A DNA stretch of 64,000 nt from Alphaproteobacteria bacterium (lineage in GTDB: Bacteria; Pseudomonadota; Alphaproteobacteria; UBA8366), in the NCBI GenBank assembly GCA_009377445.1, contig WHUA01000001.1:776759-840758 (forward strand), in the 5' to 3' direction. Below, piece by piece: positions 46,223 through 63,007 of this stretch. The number at the start of each line of letters is the position of its first letter. Positions within the stretch are counted from its first letter, which is position 1. The notes under the pieces were generated by a model, which saw nothing but the letters and a program-made list of their open reading frames with translations, had not been told where the DNA came from and ran no database searches. The position numbers were made by a program, and so were the translations under genes.

Positions 46223-46312
<90 letters not shown>

Positions 46313-46739: not shown

Positions 46740-48479
46740 TCAATCGATCCCGAGCAGGGTGCGCTGTTCTTCCCAGGCGCCGGGGAGCCGAACTTCGTTC
46801 GCAAGGCGCTTGGCTGTCAACTCGACCGGATGCCGATCGCGCAGGACCGCCGTGACGATGTCGGGCGCGAGGAAACCCAGCCGGAGGATGCGGGAGAAGT
46901 AGGACCCGCCGACGCCGGCTTCGGCGGCGAGATCTGCCATCGTCCTCCCGCCGTTGTGCATCACCATGGCATGATACCGGTGGGCGTGGACGAGAACCCG
47001 GCATAGGCTGTGGTCGGGCTTACGGCGCGCGCCGCTGCCCACGCCGTCGATCAACAGCCTGGTTTCCATGCCGGTCCGCTTGAGCCGGGCCGGCACCATC
47101 AAGGTGACGCTGGGCGAATCGGCCTCGGCTGGTTGTGTGCGATGCCGCCACTCGTTCCCATCCCGGAGGACCGCGGGCAGCCGGCTTGGCAGAATGCGGA
47201 TTTCCAGCGTTTCGCGTAGGACGTCGATGCGCTCGACAAGGGTCGAGATGACAGCACGTCGGTCCCGCGGCGTGAGGCTGGGCCAGCGGTCCGCGAGGTC
47301 GGCGGCGCGGGCGAAAAGCTCCGTGCATTCATTCACGTCCGTTATCTGGGACTCTATCGCGCCGAATACCTCCGCCTCGCTCGCCAGGAACTGGCGCAGG
47401 CGATTCTCGACGAGGACTTCGAGATCGCCCGCGGGGACGCGGCGCCCGCGCGGCGCATCGGACCGCCGACCCCGGACGAGCCCGCGAGAGACATAGTACC
47501 GGTAGCGGGTGCCCTTCTTGTTGGCATGGCTCGGGATCATCCGGGCGCCGGCATCGTCGTGGATCAGTCCGGCGAGGAGGCTTGGCTGCGCCGCTCCGAC
47601 GCCGGTTGCCCGGTCGATCCGATTGTCCGTGAGCTTCCGCTGCACCTCGTCCCACAGGGTCTCGTCGATAATGGCGTCATGGTCGCCGGGGTAGCTGTTT
47701 TCCTTGTGCACGATCTTGCCGCGGTAAATGCGGTTCTGCAGCATCAGATAGAGCGCCCCGCGGGCCAGCGGCTTGCCGCCCGTCCTGCGACCGTATTTGT
47801 CGATGCGCAGTTTGCTCACGATACCGTCGCGGTCGAGTTCGTCCTTCAACGCCCAGACCGAGCCGAGCACGGCATAGCGCCGGTAGACGCGGCGGACCGT
47901 CTCGGCTTCGCGATGATTGACCACCAGCTTGCGGTCCCTCACGTCGTAGCCGAGCGGCGGCAGGCCCCCCATCCACATACCCTTCTTCTTGGAGGCGGCG
48001 ATCTTGTCGCGGATGCGCTCGCCCGTGACCTCGCGCTCGAATTGGGCGAAGCTGAGCAGCATGTTGAGGGTCAACCGGCCCATCGAGGTCGTGGTGTTGA
48101 ACTGCTGCGTGACCGAGACGAACGAGACGCCGTGGACGTCGAACACCTCGACGATCTTGGCGAAGTCGCCGAGCGAGCGGGTCAGGCGGTCGACCTTATA
48201 GACCACGACCGTGTCGATCCGGCCCGCCTCGATGTCGGCGAGGAGTCGCGTCAGAGCCGGTCGCTCCATGGTCGCGCCCGATATGCCGCCATCGTCGTAC
48301 ATCTCGGGCAGGCAGCTCCAACCTTCATGCTTCTGGCTGAGGATATAGGCCTCGCAGGCATCACGTTGAGCATCGAGCGAGTTGTAGTCTTGCTCGAGCC
48401 CCTCCTCATGAGACTTGCGGGTATAGATCGCACAACGGATCCGGGCGGATCGGGCTGCGGCCTTGGTGGCCTTACGCAT
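46740..48479 (-). CDS. Large serine recombinase (resolvase + recombinase domains)
   Basis: CAIYTRKS catalytic Ser, SLDAQR, YDDGGISG, VYKVDRLTRS, FAQFERE..GERIRDK. Confidence 0.93.
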   Translation of the reverse strand: MRKATKAAARSARIRCAIYTRKSHEEGLEQDYNSLDAQRDACEAYILSQKHEGWSCLPEMYDDGGISGATMERPALTRLLADIEAGRIDTVVVYKVDRLTRSLGDFAKIVEVFDVHGVSFVSVTQQFNTTTSMGRLTLNMLLSFAQFEREVTGERIRDKIAASKKKGMWMGGLPPLGYDVRDRKLVVNHREAETVRRVYRRYAVLGSVWALKDELDRDGIVSKLRIDKYGRRTGGKPLARGALYLMLQNRIYRGKIVHKENSYPGDHDAIIDETLWDEVQRKLTDNRIDRATGVGAAQPSLLAGLIHDDAGARMIPSHANKKGTRYRYYVSRGLVRGRRSDAPRGRRVPAGDLEVLVENRLRQFLASEAEVFGAIESQITDVNECTELFARAADLADRWPSLTPRDRRAVISTLVERIDVLRETLEIRILPSRLPAVLRDGNEWRHRTQPAEADSPSVTLMVPARLKRTGMETRLLIDGVGSGARRKPDHSLCRVLVHAHRYHAMVMHNGGRTMADLAAEAGVGGSYFSRILRLGFLAPDIVTAVLRDRHPVELTAKRLANEVRLPGAWEEQRTLLGID

Positions 48480-48981
48480 CGTCGGACTCCGCGTTCTCGG
48501 CGGGGCTCTTCGTTCTTTCCGTCATCCCAAAGAAGCGCGGGCCCGACCAATGAACGCCGGTGATCTCGCGGGCAATGACCGATAGCGAGCGCCAGAGCCT
48601 GCCCTTCCATTCGAAGCCGTCTTCGCGGACGACCACGATGTGGCTCTCGCTGCGCCATTCACGCACCAGCCGGGCGCCCGGCTTGAGCCGGGCGACCCGG
48701 TTCCGGGTCACGTCACCGTTCCGTTCCAGAGTCTTCGCCAGACCGGCGAGCCTATGCTTCGTGGCCACACTGTGGCCTCCATAAGCCTGCTCCTGGATCT
48801 TCCAGGCGACGCCGAGCTTGAGCAGCTCGCGCGCCACGCGCATCGGCGGCTGGGCGCGATAGAGCCGCCGCCACTCGCGGCGCAGGTCGGTGTAGTCCAT
48901 CTGCTCAAGGGCCTGGAGCCTGGCTGAAACGGTATCCGGCGTGCCGTCAATGGCGCCGCCGTTTGTGTCTGCTGTGGTCAT
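48472..48981 (-). CDS. DUF2924 family protein
   Basis: LRREWRRLY..PP, AWKIQEQAYGG, LKPGARLVREWR, SLSVIAREITG..WSGPRFFG; overlaps the recombinase start. Confidence 0.88.
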   Translation of the reverse strand: MTTADTNGGAIDGTPDTVSARLQALEQMDYTDLRREWRRLYRAQPPMRVARELLKLGVAWKIQEQAYGGHSVATKHRLAGLAKTLERNGDVTRNRVARLKPGARLVREWRSESHIVVVREDGFEWKGRLWRSLSVIAREITGVHWSGPRFFGMTERTKSPAENAESDDA

Positions 48982-49212
48982 CGGCCTTCCTTCGTTTCCG
49001 GCCGCGTCCGATACGCGGCCTCCCACCGCCCGAAGCCCCGGACGGCGCGCCGTCGGGGCCGGGCGAAGGGCGAAGGTCTTATTCTTGGCCCGGGATAGTA
49101 CCGCTCTGTTGCGCGCGGAAGTCCAGTGGAAAGACCACCGAAAAGGGGGGTCTCCCGACCAAGGCTGTGCTAAAAAACGCGTAAATCCAAGGACTTACAA
49201 GAGGCATACCGT

Positions 49213-51976: not shown

Positions 51977-52313
51977 GATTGTGCGGCATCAGTTGGAACG
52001 ACGTGAAGATGCGGCCAAGGTCCGCAGTCAGAGCGCCGGGGTATCCCCTGATTTTCGCGTGAGTCTGTTAGATGGCCCATCTGTCTCTCAAGCACCCGAG
52101 AACCGTTTTGACGTCATGGGCCACGATCCTGCGATGGCTCGTTCGCTTGGAATTGAAACTGTATCTCTGCGCCGATGAAATGAACGGTCTTGTCGGGTCC
52201 GGTCTCTTCGATGAACGCGCCCGGATAAAATTGTGAATACGAGATCATTGAGAACGCCGATTATACCAGAATTATCAATGCGTTAGAACTGTCTAGCATC
52301 GTTGGATACTGAT

Positions 52314-52525
52314 GGTTCGAATCCTGTTCGCTCCGCCACACACAAGTCTCTGATATTGAATGTATTTTCGTCGTCCGAGGTGCGCCCGAATAGCGCCGAC
52401 TTTTCCGCCCTTTAGGGGCCGGTGTAAGCCGGTAGTCGACCGGCAGAGACGGAGTTGTCAGGGGATATCTTGCCGCGGCGCCTGAATGTCTCTACGAGCG
52501 AGTTTTTCAGTACCTCTTTGCGCGC
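52314..52525 (+). repeat. Junction 3: tRNA-3'-like att site plus conserved left-end sequence
   Basis: GGTTCGAATCC..CTCCGCCA; downstream sequence is in exact register with junction 2. Confidence 0.9.
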
Positions 52526-52719
52526 GATGAAGCGTGGTGACGGCGTTTCCATCGAAAGCAAGGACCAGAATGCCGACCATAAAGGTTGTCCCATAAACAG
52601 ACTGTATCGGCCCCTCGCTGCCGGACCGTTAGCAACCCGCAGCCTGTGCTTGTGCCCCGCTGCAAAACCACCGCTCGGTCCTATGCGCGGGAAGGGAACA
52701 TTTGGGATTGCCAATGTCC

Positions 52720-53187
52720 CTAAGCTCGACTGTCAATGAGCGTGGAGAGGCGTTCGACGAACTCCAGCAGACCAGCGCCATCGATCGATGCCGACCAATT
52801 GTCGGGTGCCTTTTCATTTGGACGGTCCCAGAAGGTAACTTCGACTCCGGCGAGCGATCGATTGTCCGACGAGAAGCAGACGCGGCGATGCGAAAGGGCG
52901 TTGCGTAGGTGAGACAGATGTTTGTCTAGGGATTCAGATTCACCGACATGAAAGGCCCATGCAGGCCAACCGTCTTCGACCAGATCGTCCAGTGACAAGG
53001 TCTTGAAATCAAGAAACCCGACCCGCCTGAAGTGTCCGTAGGGGAAGACGATCAGGCCGAGCAGCGAACATGTGAGCTGGGTGACGATGTGGATGTCCTC
53101 GTCATTCTCACGGGCAACGATCATAAAATCGAGATTCTTGCGCACACGGCGCGCGAATCCCTCGATTGTGTTGCGGTCAATTTCCAT
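52720..53187 (-). CDS. HEPN-family nuclease candidate (pEK499_p136-like)
   Basis: VTQLTCSLLGLIVFP and HLRNALSH (RxxxxH); RBS GAAGG upstream of ATG. Confidence 0.72.
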   Translation of the reverse strand: MEIDRNTIEGFARRVRKNLDFMIVARENDEDIHIVTQLTCSLLGLIVFPYGHFRRVGFLDFKTLSLDDLVEDGWPAWAFHVGESESLDKHLSHLRNALSHRRVCFSSDNRSLAGVEVTFWDRPNEKAPDNWSASIDGAGLLEFVERLSTLIDSRA

Positions 53188-53326
53188 AGCACGCCCTTCA
53201 GCAGTTCTCGTGCTCCGCCAAATGCCTAACAGGAAAAGCGACAGACGGATTTGTCGCCCGGATGGCCGATGTCTTGGTTTCTGTGATCGTGACAAAGGTG
53301 CCCTTGCTGAAGAACTGCATCGGGCT

Positions 53327-53600
53327 CTAGGCCGGCTTCTTACGCGTTCGCAGCTGCGACAACTTGAGTCGCTTTCCCGTCTTCTTTCCTGCCGCTCGAT
53401 TTCCCGCCCGCTTCCAAGTGGTGCTGTCGATTAGGCGTGAGTGCCTGATGTCCAGATTGGCGCAGCCGGGTAGGTCGAGGAGTGTAGCGATTACGCTGTC
53501 GGCCACGGACATCGGAAGCCACGGGTTTATGTAGATGCGGTCGATCCACTCCACAGGGCAGTCGACCTCGTATGCACCCCGCTGGTCCTTCGAAGAAGGT
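53327..53600 (-). pseudogene. 3' remnant of an unknown gene (DUF2971-like C-terminus?)
   Basis: Start-less protein-like segment GAYEVDCPVEWIDRIYINPWLP..SRLID cut off just below the ParB operon. Confidence 0.3.
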
Positions 53601-53630
53601 AGGTCGGGTCCGGGTCCCCATCGGCGATTG

Positions 53631-54554
53631 TCATTCCGCCGCAGTCGTCACCGGCACGAGGCTCTCGATTTCCGCGACCGACTGGAACTCGGTCAGATAT
53701 TCTTGGCGATGCCGTGACAGCCAGCGCACGACCTGCGCATTGCCGAGGAGCTTGCGGATATAACCTTTGGCGACCGTCAGGTGCAGGTTATCGATACCGT
53801 AGGTCTCCTCGACTGATTTCACCTGCGATTGGAGGCTTGCGAGCTCCCGCTCCAAGCGTGCGATCTGTTCTGCGGTGACAGCTCGTTCTCCGCGCAGCTT
53901 CTTCTTCCGGGGATCGACAAGCTGCGCTTCGGGCGTCGCAGCCAGGATCGCCTTGGCGAACGTGGCGGTGTAATTGTTCTGCCCTCTCATCAGCTCGACC
54001 GCTTCCAGTTGGCGCATTGGCGCCATGCACCTGAGGACGTCGAGTGTAGCCGCTGGGCAGGGTGTATCCTTCAACGCCTCGGTCGCGTCGGGCCAGATAC
54101 CGTCGAGCATGCGTGTGCGTTTCCTGATCGTCTGCGCGTCAAGCCCCAAGGCCTCTGCGATCCTCTTTTCTGACACGCCGCGATCGATGGCGCGCAGAAT
54201 CATCCGATGTTCCTGGATGGGCGGGAGCCGGTTAATCCGTTTGTTATAAGTGTAAGTCTCGTCGTCGGTGGCAATGAGACATTCGACCTCGCTGATCCCG
54301 AGGTCCTTGAGCGCCTCGATCCTCAGATGACCATCGAGCAGGAAATATCGGCCCCGATGCTTGCGGTCGGGCGCCACAACCGGCGCTTCCACAAGTCCCA
54401 CGGCGCGCACCGAGGTAAGAATCTGTGCGTATTTCCCGCTCTCCTTGGTGCCGGGACGCATGATTTTGAGCGGCAGCAGCTGCGCAATGGGAACGATCAC
54501 GCTTTCGCGTTCGAAGCCGAATCTCACACCATGGCCCGTTTTATCTCCTATCAT
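53631..54554 (-). CDS. ParB/Srx-fold protein with HTH (RepB C-terminal-like)
   Basis: SVRAVGLVEAPVV, LLDGHLRIEAL (GxxRxxA), YTYNKRINRL, HTH IAEALGL. Confidence 0.85.
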   Translation of the reverse strand: MIGDKTGHGVRFGFERESVIVPIAQLLPLKIMRPGTKESGKYAQILTSVRAVGLVEAPVVAPDRKHRGRYFLLDGHLRIEALKDLGISEVECLIATDDETYTYNKRINRLPPIQEHRMILRAIDRGVSEKRIAEALGLDAQTIRKRTRMLDGIWPDATEALKDTPCPAATLDVLRCMAPMRQLEAVELMRGQNNYTATFAKAILAATPEAQLVDPRKKKLRGERAVTAEQIARLERELASLQSQVKSVEETYGIDNLHLTVAKGYIRKLLGNAQVVRWLSRHRQEYLTEFQSVAEIESLVPVTTAAE

Positions 54555-55450
54555 TTCCGGGCCTCCCCAGCGATGCGGTCAGCGAGTGCCTGCGGCATCG
54601 TGGCGAGCCCCTAGGCGCGGAGGAGGGTGGTGAAGCCCTCGGCAGCCAGGAGGTCCTTCATCGCCTCGACGATGAAGAGGAGCCGCGCCTGCGTAAAATC
54701 TGCCTTGCGTGCCAGCAGCCGCTGTCGGTCCGTCTCGCGCTTATAGACGCGCAAGAGGTCGTCCGCAGTAAGGCGCTTCGTATGCGAACGCCGGCCTAGT
54801 CCCTTGTCCGTGACTCCCTTCCTTGTTCTGAGGCGCAAGTCGAGAAGTCGGCGCACGGCGGCTAACTTCTTGCCCCGAATTTTGCCGCTTTCGTAGGCTT
54901 CCAACAGGATCGTCTGCGCCTCCTCACTCTCAGCCTGGGCAATCTCAGTCGCCATTGCGATCGGGATCAGACCCGCCTCGACGGCCGCGACCAGCCTATC
55001 CTCGCCGCGCTCGAGAAGCGTAACGACGTGGTTTACCCAGCTTCGCGAGCATCCGATTTTTGCGGCGATCTCGGCATCATTGTAGCCACGCTTGGCGAGA
55101 TTGCCGATCTCCGCCATGAGATCGATCGGTCGGTGCGGTCGCCGCGCAATGTTTTCGACGAGGCTCATCACCAGGCATTCCGGTTCCGCCAGCTCGATGA
55201 CGACGGCCGGGATTTCCGTCTCTCCCAACATGCGGAAAGCTTCGATCCGCCCTTCACCGCAGACGAGATCGTAGCGTACGGCACCCCCTGCCTTTCGGCG
55301 ACTTACGGTGATGGGACGCTTGAGGCCGACGGACGCGATGTTGTCCACGAGTTCGCGATGTCTCCGCCGATTACGGGCGCGTGGGTTGAGGGTATGAATC
55401 GCATCGACGTGGACCATCTCGATGGTCTGAGCGTGCGAGGGGATAGTCAT
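54551..55450 (-). pseudogene. ParB/RepB-like protein interrupted by in-frame TAG at 54611-54613, 20 codons before the likely natural stop
   Basis: NIASVGLKRPITV, LVCGEGRIEAF; frame continues GLATMPQALADRIAGEARK to TGA at 54551-54553, which forms an ATGA overlap with the next gene. Confidence 0.75.
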
Positions 55451-57024
55451 CAGGCAACCTCCCGGATGCAAACCGGCGCGGCGAGCTCGTAGAGAACGTC
55501 GAGCGTCTCGAAACGATAGGCGTCGAGCGAGAGCCCGTTCTCCTCGGCGAGCCGGATTTGGGCGCTCGCGACGTCGATCTTGGGAAAGACATAGAAGTCG
55601 AGCGGCCGCCGATTGCGAGCGTCCATCCGCACGGCGATCGTAATGTCGGGATAGAGGCCGGTATCGAAGCGCAGCCGCCAGCGCAGAGCGCCGGCCGGCG
55701 TCTCCTTGCAGCGAGCGATGACGACGGAAAGGGAGAACTCGCCGTTCACCTCGAGGAGGTCGGTTTCCTCCGCGCGCCCGTCGATGGCGCCGACCTGGCG
55801 CAGACCCGCCACGATTTCTTCGACTATCTCGGGATACAGACCTCGGAGCGCCCGGTTGATCTCGATATAGCGGTAATCGCGGCGCGGCGCGTATCCGACG
55901 AGACGGTAGGCACGTATGAGGCTGCCGAAGCGGTGCCGATAGGTGCTGCTCGACGGCAGGTCGTCGGTCTCGTCGATGATCAGACCCGAGAGGTAGCCTT
56001 GGGCCTCGAACAGGCGGCGCAGGCCGTCAAGCAGCTCGTCGTCACTTAGCCGTTTCGAGCGCTCGACGATGATGGCCTGGGCGGCATCGAACAGCTCTCG
56101 ATCGACAATCGGCTCGAATGCGGCGCCGGCTCGGATCCACATGTCCGGGTTGTTGCGGACGCGCTTCTTCTTAAGTTTGAACGAGACTCGGTTCCAGACG
56201 TTGTCGCCGGCATACTTCTCGTTGATCAGCACCTGGTGCACGGTGCCGCGCGTCCAGGGGCGGCCGAGGTCGGTGACGACGCCGCGCACGTTGAGGAGAT
56301 CTGCAATCTCGCGCTCCGGTTTGCCGTTCTCGACAAAGGCGCGATACATCCACCGAATGGTGCCCACCTCGGCGCGTGGTCCGGGGACGAGGACCACGCG
56401 GTCAGTCTGGATGCTCTTGTGCTCGCCCCGTGTGAGCTCGCCCTTGGGCGTGCCGCCCTGATCGATCAGACGACGGCGGAGGCCGTACCCGGCCGCGCCC
56501 CCTTGACGATAACCGTGCTCGATCAGCCGGCACTGACCGGCAAAGACCTTCGCCGAGAGCTCGCGGCTGTACTCGCCTGCCATCGCCCGTTTCACGCCCT
56601 TGACGATGGTCGAGACAGGGCTGCCGTCATTCTCGAACTGCTCGGCGCAGTACTGGACGGCAATGCCGGTGCGTTTGCAGATGTACTCGTAGTAGGCGCT
56701 TTCGTCGGCGTCCTGGAACCGGCCCCAGCGGCTCACGTCGTAAACAAGTATGACGGTGAAGTCCGCCGCGCCGCTCTGAACGTCCGCGATCAGTTGCTCG
56801 AGGGCGGCGCGGCCGTCGAGGCGCAACCCGCTGCGACCCTCGTCCGCGTACGTGCGGACGATCTCGATGCCACGCCGCTCTGCATATTGGCGGATGGCGT
56901 CGGCCTGGTTCGCAGTCGAATACTGCTGGTGCTCGGTGGACATCCGGACATACTGGGCGCCACGGACACGGGGTGCGTCCGTCTCGTTGCTTCCGCCGCC
57001 GCCAAGATCATCCCCTTCAGTCAA
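55450..57024 (-). CDS. Serine recombinase (recombinase family protein)
   Basis: QYVRMSTEHQQYS catalytic Ser, YADEGRSG, YDVSRWGRFQ, AGEYSRELS; TGATG overlap with first parB; TTG start uncertain. Confidence 0.92.
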   Translation of the reverse strand: MTEGDDLGGGGSNETDAPRVRGAQYVRMSTEHQQYSTANQADAIRQYAERRGIEIVRTYADEGRSGLRLDGRAALEQLIADVQSGAADFTVILVYDVSRWGRFQDADESAYYEYICKRTGIAVQYCAEQFENDGSPVSTIVKGVKRAMAGEYSRELSAKVFAGQCRLIEHGYRQGGAAGYGLRRRLIDQGGTPKGELTRGEHKSIQTDRVVLVPGPRAEVGTIRWMYRAFVENGKPEREIADLLNVRGVVTDLGRPWTRGTVHQVLINEKYAGDNVWNRVSFKLKKKRVRNNPDMWIRAGAAFEPIVDRELFDAAQAIIVERSKRLSDDELLDGLRRLFEAQGYLSGLIIDETDDLPSSSTYRHRFGSLIRAYRLVGYAPRRDYRYIEINRALRGLYPEIVEEIVAGLRQVGAIDGRAEETDLLEVNGEFSLSVVIARCKETPAGALRWRLRFDTGLYPDITIAVRMDARNRRPLDFYVFPKIDVASAQIRLAEENGLSLDAYRFETLDVLYELAAPVCIREVA

Positions 57025-57152
57025 TCATTCTGGTCCTTCCGCATCAGGGCCGAGGCCCTGCGGTCGTGCGTTCGACATGCGTGAGCGCTGAGGACGGATG
57101 CCGCCGCTCCTGGTCTCCGCGCCGTCAATTCTAGATGTGGAGGGTTGGAAAG

Positions 57153-57839
57153 ATGTTTCCGAAAAAGGGCAACTTTTTTCCAGGAGGAAATGACCGAGAA
57201 AGCGGTCGCATGAACTATGCGACGATGGTCGCGACGGCGCTGCGAAAGGAGCTAGGCGGCAGCCATCAGGCGACAAAGACTGTGATGCGTTGGACCGGCG
57301 CCAGCGAGCGCACTGTCAAGCACTGGCTCGCCGGCTATCATGGACCCGGCGGCGCATGTCTAATTGTTCTGATGCGTGAATCCGAGACCGTGTACGAAGC
57401 CGTTCTCGCGTCGGCTGGTCGCCGCGACGCCATGGTTACCGCTCGGGTATTGGCAGTGCACCGCATGATCGCCGAGGTCATGGCCCTGATCGATCGAGAG
57501 GAGGCCGGCCCTCCGGGGAACCGCCCCAAGGAAGCTGCTCGGGAGAAAGGACCGGCTGAGAAGGGTCTGGATGACCGTAAAAATGACCGAACAAATGTCC
57601 CAATAAATGACCATAATTGGGGGGCCTCTGAGCCGCCGCCCGAGGACGGGCTCAAACCGCGTCAGCGCTGGTATCTCGAGGCGCTTGCCGCAGGTAAGGA
57701 GGTCAGGGCCGATGACCTCCGGCGCTGCTGGGGCGTGTCGGAGAAGACAGCGCGGCGGGACGTGGCGGCGCTGAAGGAGCGCGGCTTGATTGAGTTCGTT
57801 GGGCCGCTCAGGACGGGTCGGTACCGGCTACGCTGTTGA
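57153..57839 (+). CDS. Double HTH protein (N-terminal XRE-like HTH, C-terminal DeoR-type winged HTH)
   Basis: TVMRWTGASERTVKHWLAG and LRRCWGVSEKTARRDVAALKERGLI; divergent from the recombinase. Confidence 0.75.
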   Translation: MFPKKGNFFPGGNDRESGRMNYATMVATALRKELGGSHQATKTVMRWTGASERTVKHWLAGYHGPGGACLIVLMRESETVYEAVLASAGRRDAMVTARVLAVHRMIAEVMALIDREEAGPPGNRPKEAAREKGPAEKGLDDRKNDRTNVPINDHNWGASEPPPEDGLKPRQRWYLEALAAGKEVRADDLRRCWGVSEKTARRDVAALKERGLIEFVGPLRTGRYRLRC

Positions 57840-57911
57840 TGCTTGCCCACCGTGCTGGCCGGGGCGTCGATCTGTAAAATCGTACGGCAGGCTCTCACAC
57901 CCACTCTTCCT

Positions 57912-58271
57912 TCACTCTGGTAGTGCATTTTCGATGCGATCAAGCGAGTTCATCCATCCAAAAGCGCCACCGTTGAAGGCCGCTTCATCATCCCGATTGG
58001 TGCGGCGTGCGTTGGCAATCTCGGAACGCCAGCGGGAAATGTAGGCCGGCAACCGTTCCGCCGCCTCGATTTTGCTGTCCGTTTCCAGCGATGCAACGAA
58101 GCGGATCTTCCTCTTGCCCCCACTCCGAAACCGTTGCTGCACGTCGCGTGGTACGGCCATGATCGCGTACCACAACCTTCCTCTTCGCTGCAGGTTTGGA
58201 TGATCGCAGTCATCATATTGACCGCCGATGCTCTTCTTCTTTTTGTTCGGATGTTGCCTGTATCTGGGCAT
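57912..58271 (-). CDS. Stand-alone or truncated integrase N-terminal domain (DUF6538-like)
   Basis: NLQRRGRLWYAIMAVPRDVQQRF..RKIRFVASLETDSKIEA; no catalytic domain follows. Confidence 0.62.
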   Translation of the reverse strand: MPRYRQHPNKKKKSIGGQYDDCDHPNLQRRGRLWYAIMAVPRDVQQRFRSGGKRKIRFVASLETDSKIEAAERLPAYISRWRSEIANARRTNRDDEAAFNGGAFGWMNSLDRIENALPE

Positions 58272-58576
58272 GAATTCCTCTTCCTGGCTCTGCCCAGAAT
58301 GGGCAAACGCGACCGGTCGAGCAACTTCAAAAAGGATTGTATTCCAGCGCCCTTTGGACTAATCCGAGAAAGGTTGGACGCACGCCATTCGATCGGCTCA
58401 ATGAGCGCCGGCCCAGTGTTCTTGACATTTCCCACCACCCACGAGACCCGGATAGCACGTTAGCAATGCTGTCGATGGGGCCCCGTTGGTTCTGCCTCGC
58501 ACCGAGCGGACTTTTTACGTCGAGTCAAACAGTTTCAAATATATGACTGCTGGAGCGCATTGTTTTCCTCGCACTG

Positions 58577-58600
58577 GCCCGCCTTCTTGGCGGGCTTTTT
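58577..58600 (+). terminator. Intrinsic terminator-like hairpin
   Basis: GCCCGCC-TTCTT-GGCGGGC-TTTTT. Confidence 0.7.
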
Positions 58601-61016: not shown

Positions 61017-61931
61017 TCAGACCGACTTCACCTCATAGCCCAGCCGAGGGAAGTGTACGTGAACTGCTCCGACGGCGGGGTCCGACCGTCTGATCGATAT
61101 CTGTTCGGCCGTAGCGCGGATTACCGATCCCCGGACGGGGTCCGTGCCAAAGTCCTCCGTGACCACCTCGACTTCTGCTCCGATCTCGATACTCGGGTCG
61201 CATTCCCCAGATGGGAGCGGCTGCGGTTCGGCGCTTCGGGCAACCTCGAGGGCGGTTTCAGGTGTTATCTCTGTCCGTTGACCATGCCCAGCGGCGGCGA
61301 TCCGACCCATCCAAGCTTTGATGTGAGGATACGGATCAAGCACATCTGCAGCTTTTCCGCCAAGAGCGCCGAGCCACCAAAGTCGCTGATACACGGCCAG
61401 GTCGCCGAGAACGGGGCGGTCGGTGATCAGGAACCCTCTTCCATCGGCAAGCAGGTTTTCGATCCAATCAAGCATCAAGCACAAGTGGTGCCGCTGGTGG
61501 CATAGCCCTGCATCAATTTCATCGGCGGTGGGAGCGGAGTGGCCCCGCATTGCAGCGCGATCGGCGAAGAACGACGCTGGCAGTGCATCGCGATTCGCGC
61601 CGGTAACGTATCGGGCCGTCGGCCACATCAGAACGCGCTCGGCCCATGTGCTGAGTATGCTGGAAAATCCGTGGCATGAGGCTTCGGTCACTCGCGGTTC
61701 GGGAAAGCGGCGGTCAAGCTCCGCTGTGATCTGAAGAGTGTCGCAGTAGACATCCGCCCCGATCTGTAAAACTGGTGTGCGTCGATAACCGCCGGTAAGC
61801 GGCATGAGCAATGGCTTCGGCAAGACCATTGGAACAATGACGGACTTCCACGAGCGATTCTTGAGACCGAAAATCAGCCGTATCTTCTCGGAGTACGGAG
61901 ATTGGTCGTAGTGATGAAGAATCATGTCCAT
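61017..61931 (-). CDS. Glutathione S-transferase family protein
   Basis: ILHHYDQSPYSEKIR, GGYRRTPVLQIGADVYCDT, C-terminal VHFPRLGY. Confidence 0.92.
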   Translation of the reverse strand: MDMILHHYDQSPYSEKIRLIFGLKNRSWKSVIVPMVLPKPLLMPLTGGYRRTPVLQIGADVYCDTLQITAELDRRFPEPRVTEASCHGFSSILSTWAERVLMWPTARYVTGANRDALPASFFADRAAMRGHSAPTADEIDAGLCHQRHHLCLMLDWIENLLADGRGFLITDRPVLGDLAVYQRLWWLGALGGKAADVLDPYPHIKAWMGRIAAAGHGQRTEITPETALEVARSAEPQPLPSGECDPSIEIGAEVEVVTEDFGTDPVRGSVIRATAEQISIRRSDPAVGAVHVHFPRLGYEVKSV

Positions 61932-61959: not shown

Positions 61960-62225
61960 CTAAGCAGCAACCTCAGTCATTACTCCCGCTGTGTCCGCCA
62001 GATCAGTGGGGGCGTGCACGCTGCGACCCGCGGCAAGCTGATTGGCTAAGCTGTGAAGTCGGCGCCTTGTCATCTTACTCAATCCGCCATGGGCTGCCTC
62101 TTGGATCTTCCAAGCGATGCCGCGGGTCAGCAAATCACCGCTTAGCCGTGGCGGCGGTTCGGTGCGATAGTATCTCTGCCACTCGGTGCGGAAGTCGCGG
62201 ATCTTCATATCGGTGATTGCAGCCC
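61960..62225 (-). pseudogene. Truncated DUF2924-like gene (N-terminal half)
   Basis: DFRTEWQRYYRTEPPPRLSGDLLTRGIAWKIQEAAHGGLS aligns by eye to 48472-48981; C-terminal half absent. Confidence 0.7.
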
Positions 62226-62694
62226 GGCGATGCCAGTTACGCCGCCCAGCATTGCGATGGCACCTATCGTATTCAGGCGGGGCGGGCCGGCCGCTGCGCC
62301 CTGACGTCGATCGGTATCCGGTACTGGGACCACCTGCCGCGAGTCTTTGCCTGGCCGGCCGATCGCGATCACGTACCATGTCCCTTTGGGGCCGGGTACC
62401 AGCTGGCGCGGAACGCACTTGCCGCTGCGGTGATGCTTGGCGGTAGCCTCGACCCGGCCAGCGGTCACGTGCTCGTCGTGTACGACGTCCGTAACCCTGC
62501 TTTCCAGGCCGGGGGCACGGCGGGCAGGCAATGGGAGGCCGCGGTTGCCGCATGCCCTTATCCCGGGATTGCTACGCCGCCTGAGCTGGCAGCGTTTGCT
62601 CGGGTATATCGCTGAGGCGGAGGATCTTGCGTGGCTCGTCGATTCCCTGGGGGAGAAATACGGCCTGGTGCCGGATCAACGACCGCGGAAATGA
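62217..62694 (+). pseudogene. Frameshifted 3' remnant of a restriction-endonuclease-like gene (PGN_0703-like?)
   Basis: HCDG..RC.L..IGIRYW..PCPFGAGYQLARNALAA..YDVRNPAF continues after a frameshift near 62567 as GLLRRLSWQRLL..LGEKYGL. Confidence 0.45.
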
Positions 62695-62923: not shown

Positions 62924-63007
62924 GGTTCGCTGCAGACTGCCTGCACCGCCATGTATAACTATCTGATATATAATATTTTATTCTGATCTAAGGTATCCCC
63001 GAATAGG
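62924..63007 (+). repeat. Junction 4: att-like site
   Basis: GGTTCG..CCGCCA (62951) then TAACT, TGATA and CCGAATAG at the same offsets as junctions 2 and 3. Confidence 0.75.

Follow-up and report, generated by a model that had tools for sequence, protein, structure and literature searches.

We analyzed a 64,000-nucleotide stretch of contig WHUA01000001.1 from an alphaproteobacterium (hereafter, the window), in which a gene for an atypical large serine recombinase is followed by two genes for ParB-like proteins (ParB1 and ParB2) and faced by a divergently transcribed, putative regulator gene. Judged by their sequences and by the related loci, these genes form a cassette of mobile DNA that has five parts: the regulator, the recombinase, ParB1, ParB2, and, in the majority of copies, a structured RNA encoded past ParB2. 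The copy in the window is damaged, with a nonsense codon in ParB1, a ruined RNA, and a truncated integrase alongside. The component families are known, and their combination is apparently undescribed; full-text literature searches found no published description of the cassette, and no mechanism for it was found in the literature searched, in agreement with the initial annotation. We tentatively favor the reading that the cassette is a regulated site-specific recombination module, in which the two ParB proteins would stand in for the apparatus of site discrimination and directionality that the recombinase lacks. In the window, the module is probably non-functional.

The open reading frames (ORFs) of the minus strand comprise, in line, the recombinase (55450..57024; 524 amino acids with a TTG start; Pfam domains Resolvase and Recombinase), ParB1 (54611..55450; 279 amino acids; ParB_N, HTH_ParB, and RepB (PF07506), ending at a TAG at 54611-54613), and ParB2 (53631..54554; 307 amino acids and intact; a divergent ParB/Srx-like N-terminal domain with the motif LLDGHLR, a helix-turn-helix (HTH), and a RepB-type C-terminal domain). 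The regulator gene occupies the plus strand (57135/57153..57839) and encodes a conserved N-terminal domain and a C-terminal winged helix, and the stretch between it and the recombinase (57025..57152) holds the divergent promoter and 5'-untranslated region (UTR). The positions given in the initial annotation were correct, and its claim of three collinear genes with a divergent neighbor was confirmed by both the ORFs and the Pfam matches. It had also described the three genes as translationally coupled. This is exact for the recombinase and ParB1, which overlap by one base in TGATG (TGA at 55452-55450, ATG at 55450-55448); for ParB1 and ParB2, the ATGA at 54551-54554 exists, but ParB1 stops 5' of it at the TAG. 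The nonsense codon (which the initial annotation recorded separately), the 3' RNA and its decay, and the absence of a zinc ribbon and coiled coil from the recombinase did not figure in its account of the operon.

The order of the genes is not a product of chance, since it recurs in related loci. A pattern scan in which each species was represented by a single genome found relatives of ParB2 in at least 563 species genomes, and at E ≤ 1e-20 such relatives made up 2142 clusters of a protein database. Eighty loci were fetched, and the full recombinase-ParB1-ParB2 order was present in 68 of the 75 with enough upstream DNA; the other seven were visibly truncated or interrupted. A tblastn search of plasmids with ParB2 returned 158 records, and all four genes were seen with unrelated flanks in annotated plasmid contexts of Sphingobium, Agrobacterium, and Aminobacter. 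The distribution is patchy: in the order to which the window belongs, relatives occur in 4 of 91 genomes. The genome of the window, in which further copies were sought to define the ends, has a single copy of the cassette. The triad had been recognized beforehand as one that recurs in proteobacterial islands, and these counts bear this out for islands and plasmids alike. A co-occurrence survey had been proposed as a way to define conserved ends; the triad proved conserved, but no conserved sequence was found beyond the regulator.

The recombinase matches the Pfam families Resolvase (PF00239, E-value 6.7e-23) and Recombinase (PF07508, 4.3e-22). Its catalytic motif Y25-R27-M28-S29-T30-Q33 is invariant in 56 sequences, in which only one cysteine of the whole protein is invariant. 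In Foldseek searches with an AlphaFold2 model (predicted local distance difference test score, pLDDT, 78.7), serine-integrase complexes were matched over the first ~330 columns only (E 8e-15; residues ~20-330). The remainder of the protein (residues ~325-524) consists of a beta-rich C-terminal domain preceded by a helical segment that resembles HNH_repeat. No Pfam match to Zn_ribbon_recom was obtained for the recombinase, its C-terminal model showed neither a coiled coil nor a match to integrases, and the last 199 residues, modelled alone (pLDDT 74.3), gave no significant match in the PDB. A nuclease fold was considered for this tail but could not be confirmed: the top matches were restriction-endonuclease folds, but at E 0.04-1 and template modeling (TM) scores below 0.33 they were not significant.

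With the large serine recombinases (PhiC31, Bxb1, TP901-1, TnpX, and CcrA/B), a group that includes important genome-engineering tools, the cassette enzyme has in common the catalytic domain with its R-x-S-T-x-x-Q motif and the recombinase domain that follows it. In contrast to them, it lacks both the zinc ribbon and the coiled coil, its last ~200 residues have no significant structural match, its gene always precedes two ParB-like genes, and no att sites are known for the cassette. Dependence of a large serine recombinase on two small accessory proteins encoded together has a precedent in XisF-XisH-XisI of the Anabaena fdxN element. The accessory proteins of the cassette, however, belong to the ParB/RepB family and have no Pfam match to XisH or XisI, their genes lie 3' of the recombinase in one operon, and the cassette, which is widespread among mobile elements, further includes a regulator and an RNA.

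ParB1 resembles canonical ParB proteins, except that its box II reads GEGR in place of GERR. It matches ParB_N (PF02195) at 1.1e-11 and Spo0J (1vz0) at 2.7e-15; Spo0J, Noc, and KorB are its closest solved structures, and 77 sequences conserve NPR, G-E-x-R, and E-N-x-x-R. ParB2 is more divergent. Its strongest Pfam match is RepB (1.1e-45); similarity to ParB_N is weak and was seen in NCBIfam and PDB sequence searches, with weak matches to Spo0J, Noc, and sulfiredoxin, and the window copy has no Pfam match to ParB_N. The segment LLDGHLR is nevertheless invariant in an alignment of seven ParB2 sequences. The initial annotation had noted an arginine patch in both proteins (GEGRIEA in ParB1 and GHLRIEA in ParB2), and both motifs are present in the translations. 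It had proposed on this basis a clamp gated by nucleoside triphosphates and built from both proteins. With regard to ParB2 this proposal is not supported, as the alignment with Spo0J places GHLR where GERR is expected and YNKRINR in place of ENLQRE, so that the glutamate of ENxxR is absent. By its motifs, nucleotide binding or switching is plausible for ParB1 only, at best.

ParB proteins that act as cytidine triphosphate (CTP) switches are a recently recognized class of DNA clamps. With the CTP-dependent clamps ParB, Spo0J, Noc, and KorB, ParB1 has in common the ParB_N domain, the HTH, a dimerization-type C-terminal domain, and the motifs named above. The cassette proteins differ from these clamps in box II of ParB1 (GEGR), in the GHLR and the absent ENxxR glutamate of ParB2, in the type of the C-terminal domain (RepB, PF07506), and in being encoded with a recombinase in place of a partition ATPase; a ParA partner is missing, and no parS or parS-like repeat of the cassette was identified. 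Compared with RepB of repABC systems, both cassette proteins carry PF07506 and are annotated accordingly in RefSeq, but no RepA or RepC adjoins the cassette, and many of its copies are chromosomal. The NCBIfam equivalog for partition RepB (TIGR03454) scored 37.6 bits against a cut-off of 201.5, and no repA or repC neighbors were found.

The TAG at 54611-54613 lies in frame and ends ParB1 19 codons early, leaving a gap of 56 nt before the ATG of ParB2. Past the TAG, the read-through translation stays open for 19 conserved codons (GLATMPQALADRIAGEARK) up to a TGA that overlaps the ParB2 start codon in ATGA; this former 3' end of ParB1 (54551..54610, minus strand) is now untranslated. All ~85 homologues have glutamate at the position of the TAG (LLRAEGLxTMPRAL), and in the closest relatives, with 80-84% identity in ParB2, ParB1 has 299 amino acids and overlaps ParB2 by 4 nt. 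The TAG is therefore a recent GAG-to-TAG nonsense mutation. The residues encoded beyond it are still conserved in the window (GLATMPQALADRIAGE), like the GLxTMPRAL tail in the homologues, and because the conserved frame continues through these 19 codons, the coupling of ParB1 to ParB2 is ancestral and broken in the window copy. The mutation thus both strips ParB1 of its conserved C-terminal tail and breaks the coupling. The tail itself, EGLxTMPRAL, suggests itself as a candidate interaction motif. Sequencing runs were sought for reads supporting the TAG; none from the source organism turned up, only sediment metagenomes that shared 5-6% of words.

Downstream of ParB2, a conserved 16-mer (GGGGACCCGGACCCGA) was found in 61 of the 89 regions compared (those of 88 loci and of the window), no more than ~20 nt past the ParB2 stop codon except in one locus, where the distance is 67 nt. 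The proteins of the loci with this 16-mer are 45-73% identical to those of the window. The 16-mer opens a conserved element of ~135 nt, which two more hairpins extend to ~230 nt. Its core folds into six helices, in which 98.3% of cells are paired (41 distinct sequences); compensatory changes were observed in 15 of 31 pairs, and controls with slid partners paired at 32-46%. The presence of G-U pairs places the RNA structure on the operon strand. A covariance model of the element scored 97-162 bits in 56 of 86 loci (approximately two thirds), including the closest relatives of the window, 73 bits in one further locus, and 26-31 bits in four decayed or cut-off versions. The remaining loci, approximately a quarter of the 86, gave no match at E ≤ 0.01; several of their contigs are too short downstream. 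Because about one third of the copies are without the RNA, retention of the genes does not depend on it. A search of Rfam 15 with positions 52300-58600 of the window, which hold the decayed copy only (the intact copies were not run), returned no match at E ≤ 1.

Transcription of the element was approached through the contigs of eight public RNA sets, which were compared with a consensus-like locus. In four libraries (X4, X6, X9, and X10) the RNA part alone was covered; in library X7, one stray 35-nt match from a large contig was added to it, and in a sixth, larger library the depth was highest at the RNA part. These data are modest evidence that a stable RNA accumulates, as contig depth reflects expression poorly.

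In the window, this RNA has been reduced to a remnant (53536..53623, minus strand) that scored 15.7 bits with the covariance model, compared with 112-150 bits for the full RNA of the closest relatives. The remnant keeps the 5' 19 nt (GAUGGGGACCCGGACCCGA) and helix P1; it has gained an inserted hairpin of 18 nt and lost helices P2-P6. Farther on, the sequence is collinear and about half identical, and the folding of the remnant does not surpass that of shuffled sequence (z -0.01). Given that relatives at 80-84% identity keep the full RNA, the element decayed in the window while the protein genes stayed open. The window shows a piecemeal decay of the cassette, first of the RNA and next of ParB1, and it illustrates the dispensability of the RNA for keeping the genes. 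A weak match to the RNA model at 61068-61212 (minus strand), within a GST gene of the window (17.9 bits, rough E 0.008), is probably due to chance.

Degraded copies were also seen elsewhere. A close relative of the window copy with 84% ParB2 identity (L099, 3295-4869) has its recombinase split into ORFs of 110 and 402 amino acids, as in a decaying copy; a shorter second gene with Resolvase and Recombinase domains is located 4 kb downstream, beyond an AAA ATPase and an S8 peptidase. On pSymA of Sinorhizobium meliloti M162 (L095, 2455-6822), several short fragments of the two ParB genes are scattered among RelE/ParE toxin-antitoxin pairs. The fragments on S. meliloti megaplasmids are cassette remnants without a recombinase, and this species was therefore rejected as a model for RNA-seq. 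On several plasmids of Agrobacterium, Rhizobium, Brucella, and Haematobacter (L066, L067, and L068; matches H66-H70), ScpB is accompanied by the regulator alone or by the regulator and a partial recombinase, the cassette having been truncated from the ParB side.

The divergent gene plausibly encodes a regulator of the operon, as the initial annotation had assumed: a divergent homologue was detected in 57 of the 71 loci, and 57 aligned intergenic regions share the block CAACATcTTCCg...TAnAcT, which holds a conserved -10-like box. The start codons of the homologues align with the ATG at 57153. Of the two HTH domains that had been ascribed to the protein, the C-terminal winged helix is clear (residues 172-223 match MarR_2/HTH_DeoR with E 7e-6 to 8e-5, at or below the Pfam cut-offs), but the N-terminal domain gave only weak, sub-threshold matches to HTH_23 and HTH_29 (E ~0.04). 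The start codon of the recombinase is nearly always TTG or GTG in the same 57 regions. The 5' UTR of the recombinase operon (57025-57152 in the window) further contains a hairpin-like block of the type CTGCAGCGG...CCGCTGCAG, the variation of which among the 57 loci is apparently compensatory.

One group of loci lies in islands at guaA. In these islands, the order is guaA, a P4-type tyrosine integrase, a small ORF, the regulator, the recombinase, ParB1, ParB2, the RNA, and variable cargo. Between the guaA stop codon and the RNA, the Novosphingobium and Methylobacterium copies are for the most part 98-100% identical in nucleotide sequence (93-96% in a few 200-nt segments), whereas guaA itself is 58-86% identical and the cargo beyond the RNA differs. 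Since this block is nearly identical between the two genera, a very recent transfer across orders is indicated. The block of ~6.3 kb at the 3' end of guaA, comprising the P4-type integrase, the cassette, and the RNA (L048 1784-8131, compared with L039, L033, L038, L054, and L061), is also at least 91% identical overall to copies in Aureimonas, Nitrospirillum, and Devosia. The L048 group of guaA islands has integrase, regulator, and recombinase in the order seen in the window, where the N-terminus of a truncated tyrosine integrase (57912..58271, minus strand; 119 amino acids, DUF6538 alone, Pfam 2.4e-9) adjoins the regulator gene; the guaA integrase is intact and of the different, P4 type. A tyrosine integrase was located within 4 kb of the cassette in at least 12 of 75 loci (limited seeds), so we did not retain it as a constant neighbor.

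Other groups of loci have in common just ~4.3 kb, bounded by the regulator stop codon and the far end of the RNA. Plasmids of Sphingobium, Agrobacterium, and Aminobacter carry identical cassettes in different surroundings, and close relatives of the window copy carry a tyrosine integrase and BREX genes 3' of the RNA. On Agrobacterium plasmids, an RNA-less cassette is located in a slot between ScpB and TniQ, which holds chemotaxis genes in pTiAg57. That TniABQ genes stand beside ParB2 because the recombinase occupies a res site was considered and rejected on account of this plasmid; given the chemotaxis genes in its slot, the cassette is one of alternative cargoes there. Taken together, the differing flanks, the want of a conserved end past the regulator, the single 16-mer per locus, and the missing empty site show that the cassette behaves as a portable module and not as a two-ended transposon.

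In the reading that we favor, the regulator would repress the operon, which its TTG or GTG start would keep weakly translated, and the module would regulate itself. The recombinase would perform strand exchange. Both ParB-like proteins would bind DNA through their HTH domains and dimerize or heterodimerize through the RepB-type C-terminal domains, and thereby supply site recognition, synapsis, or directionality control, which in phage integrases are supplied by the zinc ribbon, the coiled coil, and recombination directionality factors (RDFs). ParB1 may serve as a nucleotide switch, and the RNA, which copies can lose, could act in cis or as a cofactor. What the carrier element probably gains would be resolution, excision, or retention. 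A conserved operon that joins a large serine recombinase with ParB proteins and adds a structured RNA would, if the ParB pair controls the recombinase, represent a new way to regulate or target site-specific recombination, and such control might also explain how islands and plasmids assemble or retain their variable cargo regions.

Several observations weigh against this reading. Searches for a recombination site, an excision product, an inversion, or an empty site found none: the flanks diverge at the regulator stop codon with no conserved terminal sequence past it, the 16-mer has no extra copies that might serve as recombination sites, and in Sphingobium plasmids neither a clean empty site nor terminal repeats were found, the slot being filled by other genes. 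Many carriers encode a tyrosine integrase, which leaves the need for a second recombinase unexplained. Box II of ParB1 reads GEGR and not the canonical GERR, the first arginine being absent, and ParB2 is without nucleotide-binding motifs. The putative ParB1-ParB2 heteromer, which is suggested by gene coupling alone, and the predicted contact of the ParB proteins with the recombinase belong to the same side of the balance, as does the third of copies without the RNA.

A bolder version of the proposal, to which we give a small chance, holds that the cassette represents a new class of serine-recombinase machine, in which ParB1 (as a possible CTP switch) and a degenerate ParB2 replace the zinc ribbon, the coiled coil, and the RDF, with the RNA as scaffold or cofactor. 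If this were true, a nucleotide-gated DNA clamp would license recombination on mobile elements. Intact relatives at 80-89% ParB2 identity could reveal such a machine; the broken copy in the window could not.

A different function, in plasmid stability, was also weighed and is rather unlikely. The ParB pair would then be a centromere-binding or silencing system similar to KorB/ParB, and the recombinase a resolvase of multimers or cointegrates, by comparison with Cre-lox plus ParAB in P1 or with the resolvase-containing par region of RK2. Most of the plasmid hosts are indeed large and conjugative (114 of the 158 records), both ParB proteins carry the C-terminal domain of RepB partition proteins, the structures closest to ParB1 are those of Spo0J, Noc, and KorB, and the Sphingobium cassette lies in a plasmid region with ssb, an ArdC-like gene, and another ParB gene. 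However, no ParA was found beside the 80 loci (one seed) or in the annotated plasmid contexts, and many copies reside in chromosomal islands; no ParA or Rep gene occurs among the neighbors in the window, either. The earlier judgment that plasmid partition is unlikely therefore stands. Plasmids with the cassette have their own ParAB or RepABC elsewhere, the recombinase is of the large integrase type and not a small resolvase, and neither iterated parS-like nor res-like repeats were identified, the conserved 16-mer being present once per locus.

The recombinase might instead itself serve as integrase to a small mobile element or island, with tRNA-Ser genes as the targets and the ParB proteins as directionality or accessory factors; we consider this unlikely. 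The window cassette lies within a tandem island array at a tRNA-Ser gene, and tRNA-Ser-like fragments adjoin the cassette in several loci: 3'-like fragments were found ~60 nt past the regulator in six loci of the Novosphingobium/Erythrobacteraceae type and ~300 nt past ParB2 in L018. Against this, the orientation of the cassette to the tRNA-type repeat differs among the window, L018, and the L031 group, and no conserved end is present on the regulator side. Other copies lie at guaA beside a P4-type tyrosine integrase, reside in plasmids, or occupy the cargo slot of a transposon; there is one copy in the genome of the window, and the units of its array associate with DUF2924 and serine-recombinase genes of another family. 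The initial annotation had the ParB clamp loading near an att site. This finds no support, as no att site was identified and the orientation of the cassette to the tRNA-Ser junctions varies.

A role in immunity or exclusion, in which the ParB-like proteins would sense incoming DNA and the recombinase would cut or scramble it with a nuclease-like tail, appears improbable. Defence genes are frequent neighbors, including HEPN in the window, McrBC with an AAA ATPase in Sphingobium, RES-Xre with a Dnd/Ssp-like cluster in Aminobacter, and BrxB in L101, but such genes are common island cargo anyway. The best fold matches of the recombinase C-terminus are the restriction endonucleases mentioned above, a resemblance that is not significant even at its best (E 0.04), and the catalytic serine motif indicates conservative recombination. 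PADLOC returned no match for the recombinase or ParB1, marginal and unrelated matches for ParB2, and generic winged-HTH matches for the regulator.

That the 3' RNA programs or assembles a recombinase-ParB complex, by analogy with the bridge RNAs of IS110, is highly improbable: the recombinase operon is physically linked to an RNA of strong conservation and covariation, and no other part of the locus appears as abundant in the RNA libraries, but the conserved core of this RNA is nearly invariant among elements at different sites, one third of cassettes have no RNA, the recombinase belongs to another family than those guided by bridge RNAs, and the complementarity of the RNA to its flanks is not above control (longest exact matches averaged 11.4 nt at the own locus and 11.4 nt across loci).

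The array around the cassette begins at tRNA-Ser(cga) (46223-46312). Degenerate repeats of the tRNA-Ser 3' end at 49204, 52304, and ~62943 bound the tandem island units, and the cassette is located in the third of these (52338 to ~62975), the GC content of which is below that of its surroundings. The left junction of this 10.6-kb unit is the repeat at 52304..52338 (plus strand; repeat families D4 and D5), and junction alignment placed the right one at ~62943-63007; a fifth att-like junction near 58400 was not supported by the alignment and was dropped. The unit also contains the HEPN gene (52720..53295, minus strand; pEK499_p136 family, Pfam PF18736, 3.9e-6), the 119-amino-acid DUF6538 integrase fragment, an MBL-type gene, the GST gene, and half of a DUF2924 gene. 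The HEPN gene is island cargo outside the cassette and is absent from all related loci. From this setting, the window cassette is itself cargo of a degraded island.

Units 2 and 3 have a block of 222 nt in common at their left ends (80% identity). Unit 1 (46740-49026) contains an intact DUF2924 gene that overlaps a gene for a 579-amino-acid serine recombinase of another family, and the half DUF2924 remnant (61960-62553) holds the matching position at the right end of unit 3, which suggests that the DUF2924-recombinase pair, and not the recombinase of the triad, built the tandem array. A second pair of this kind is located elsewhere on the contig (L004).

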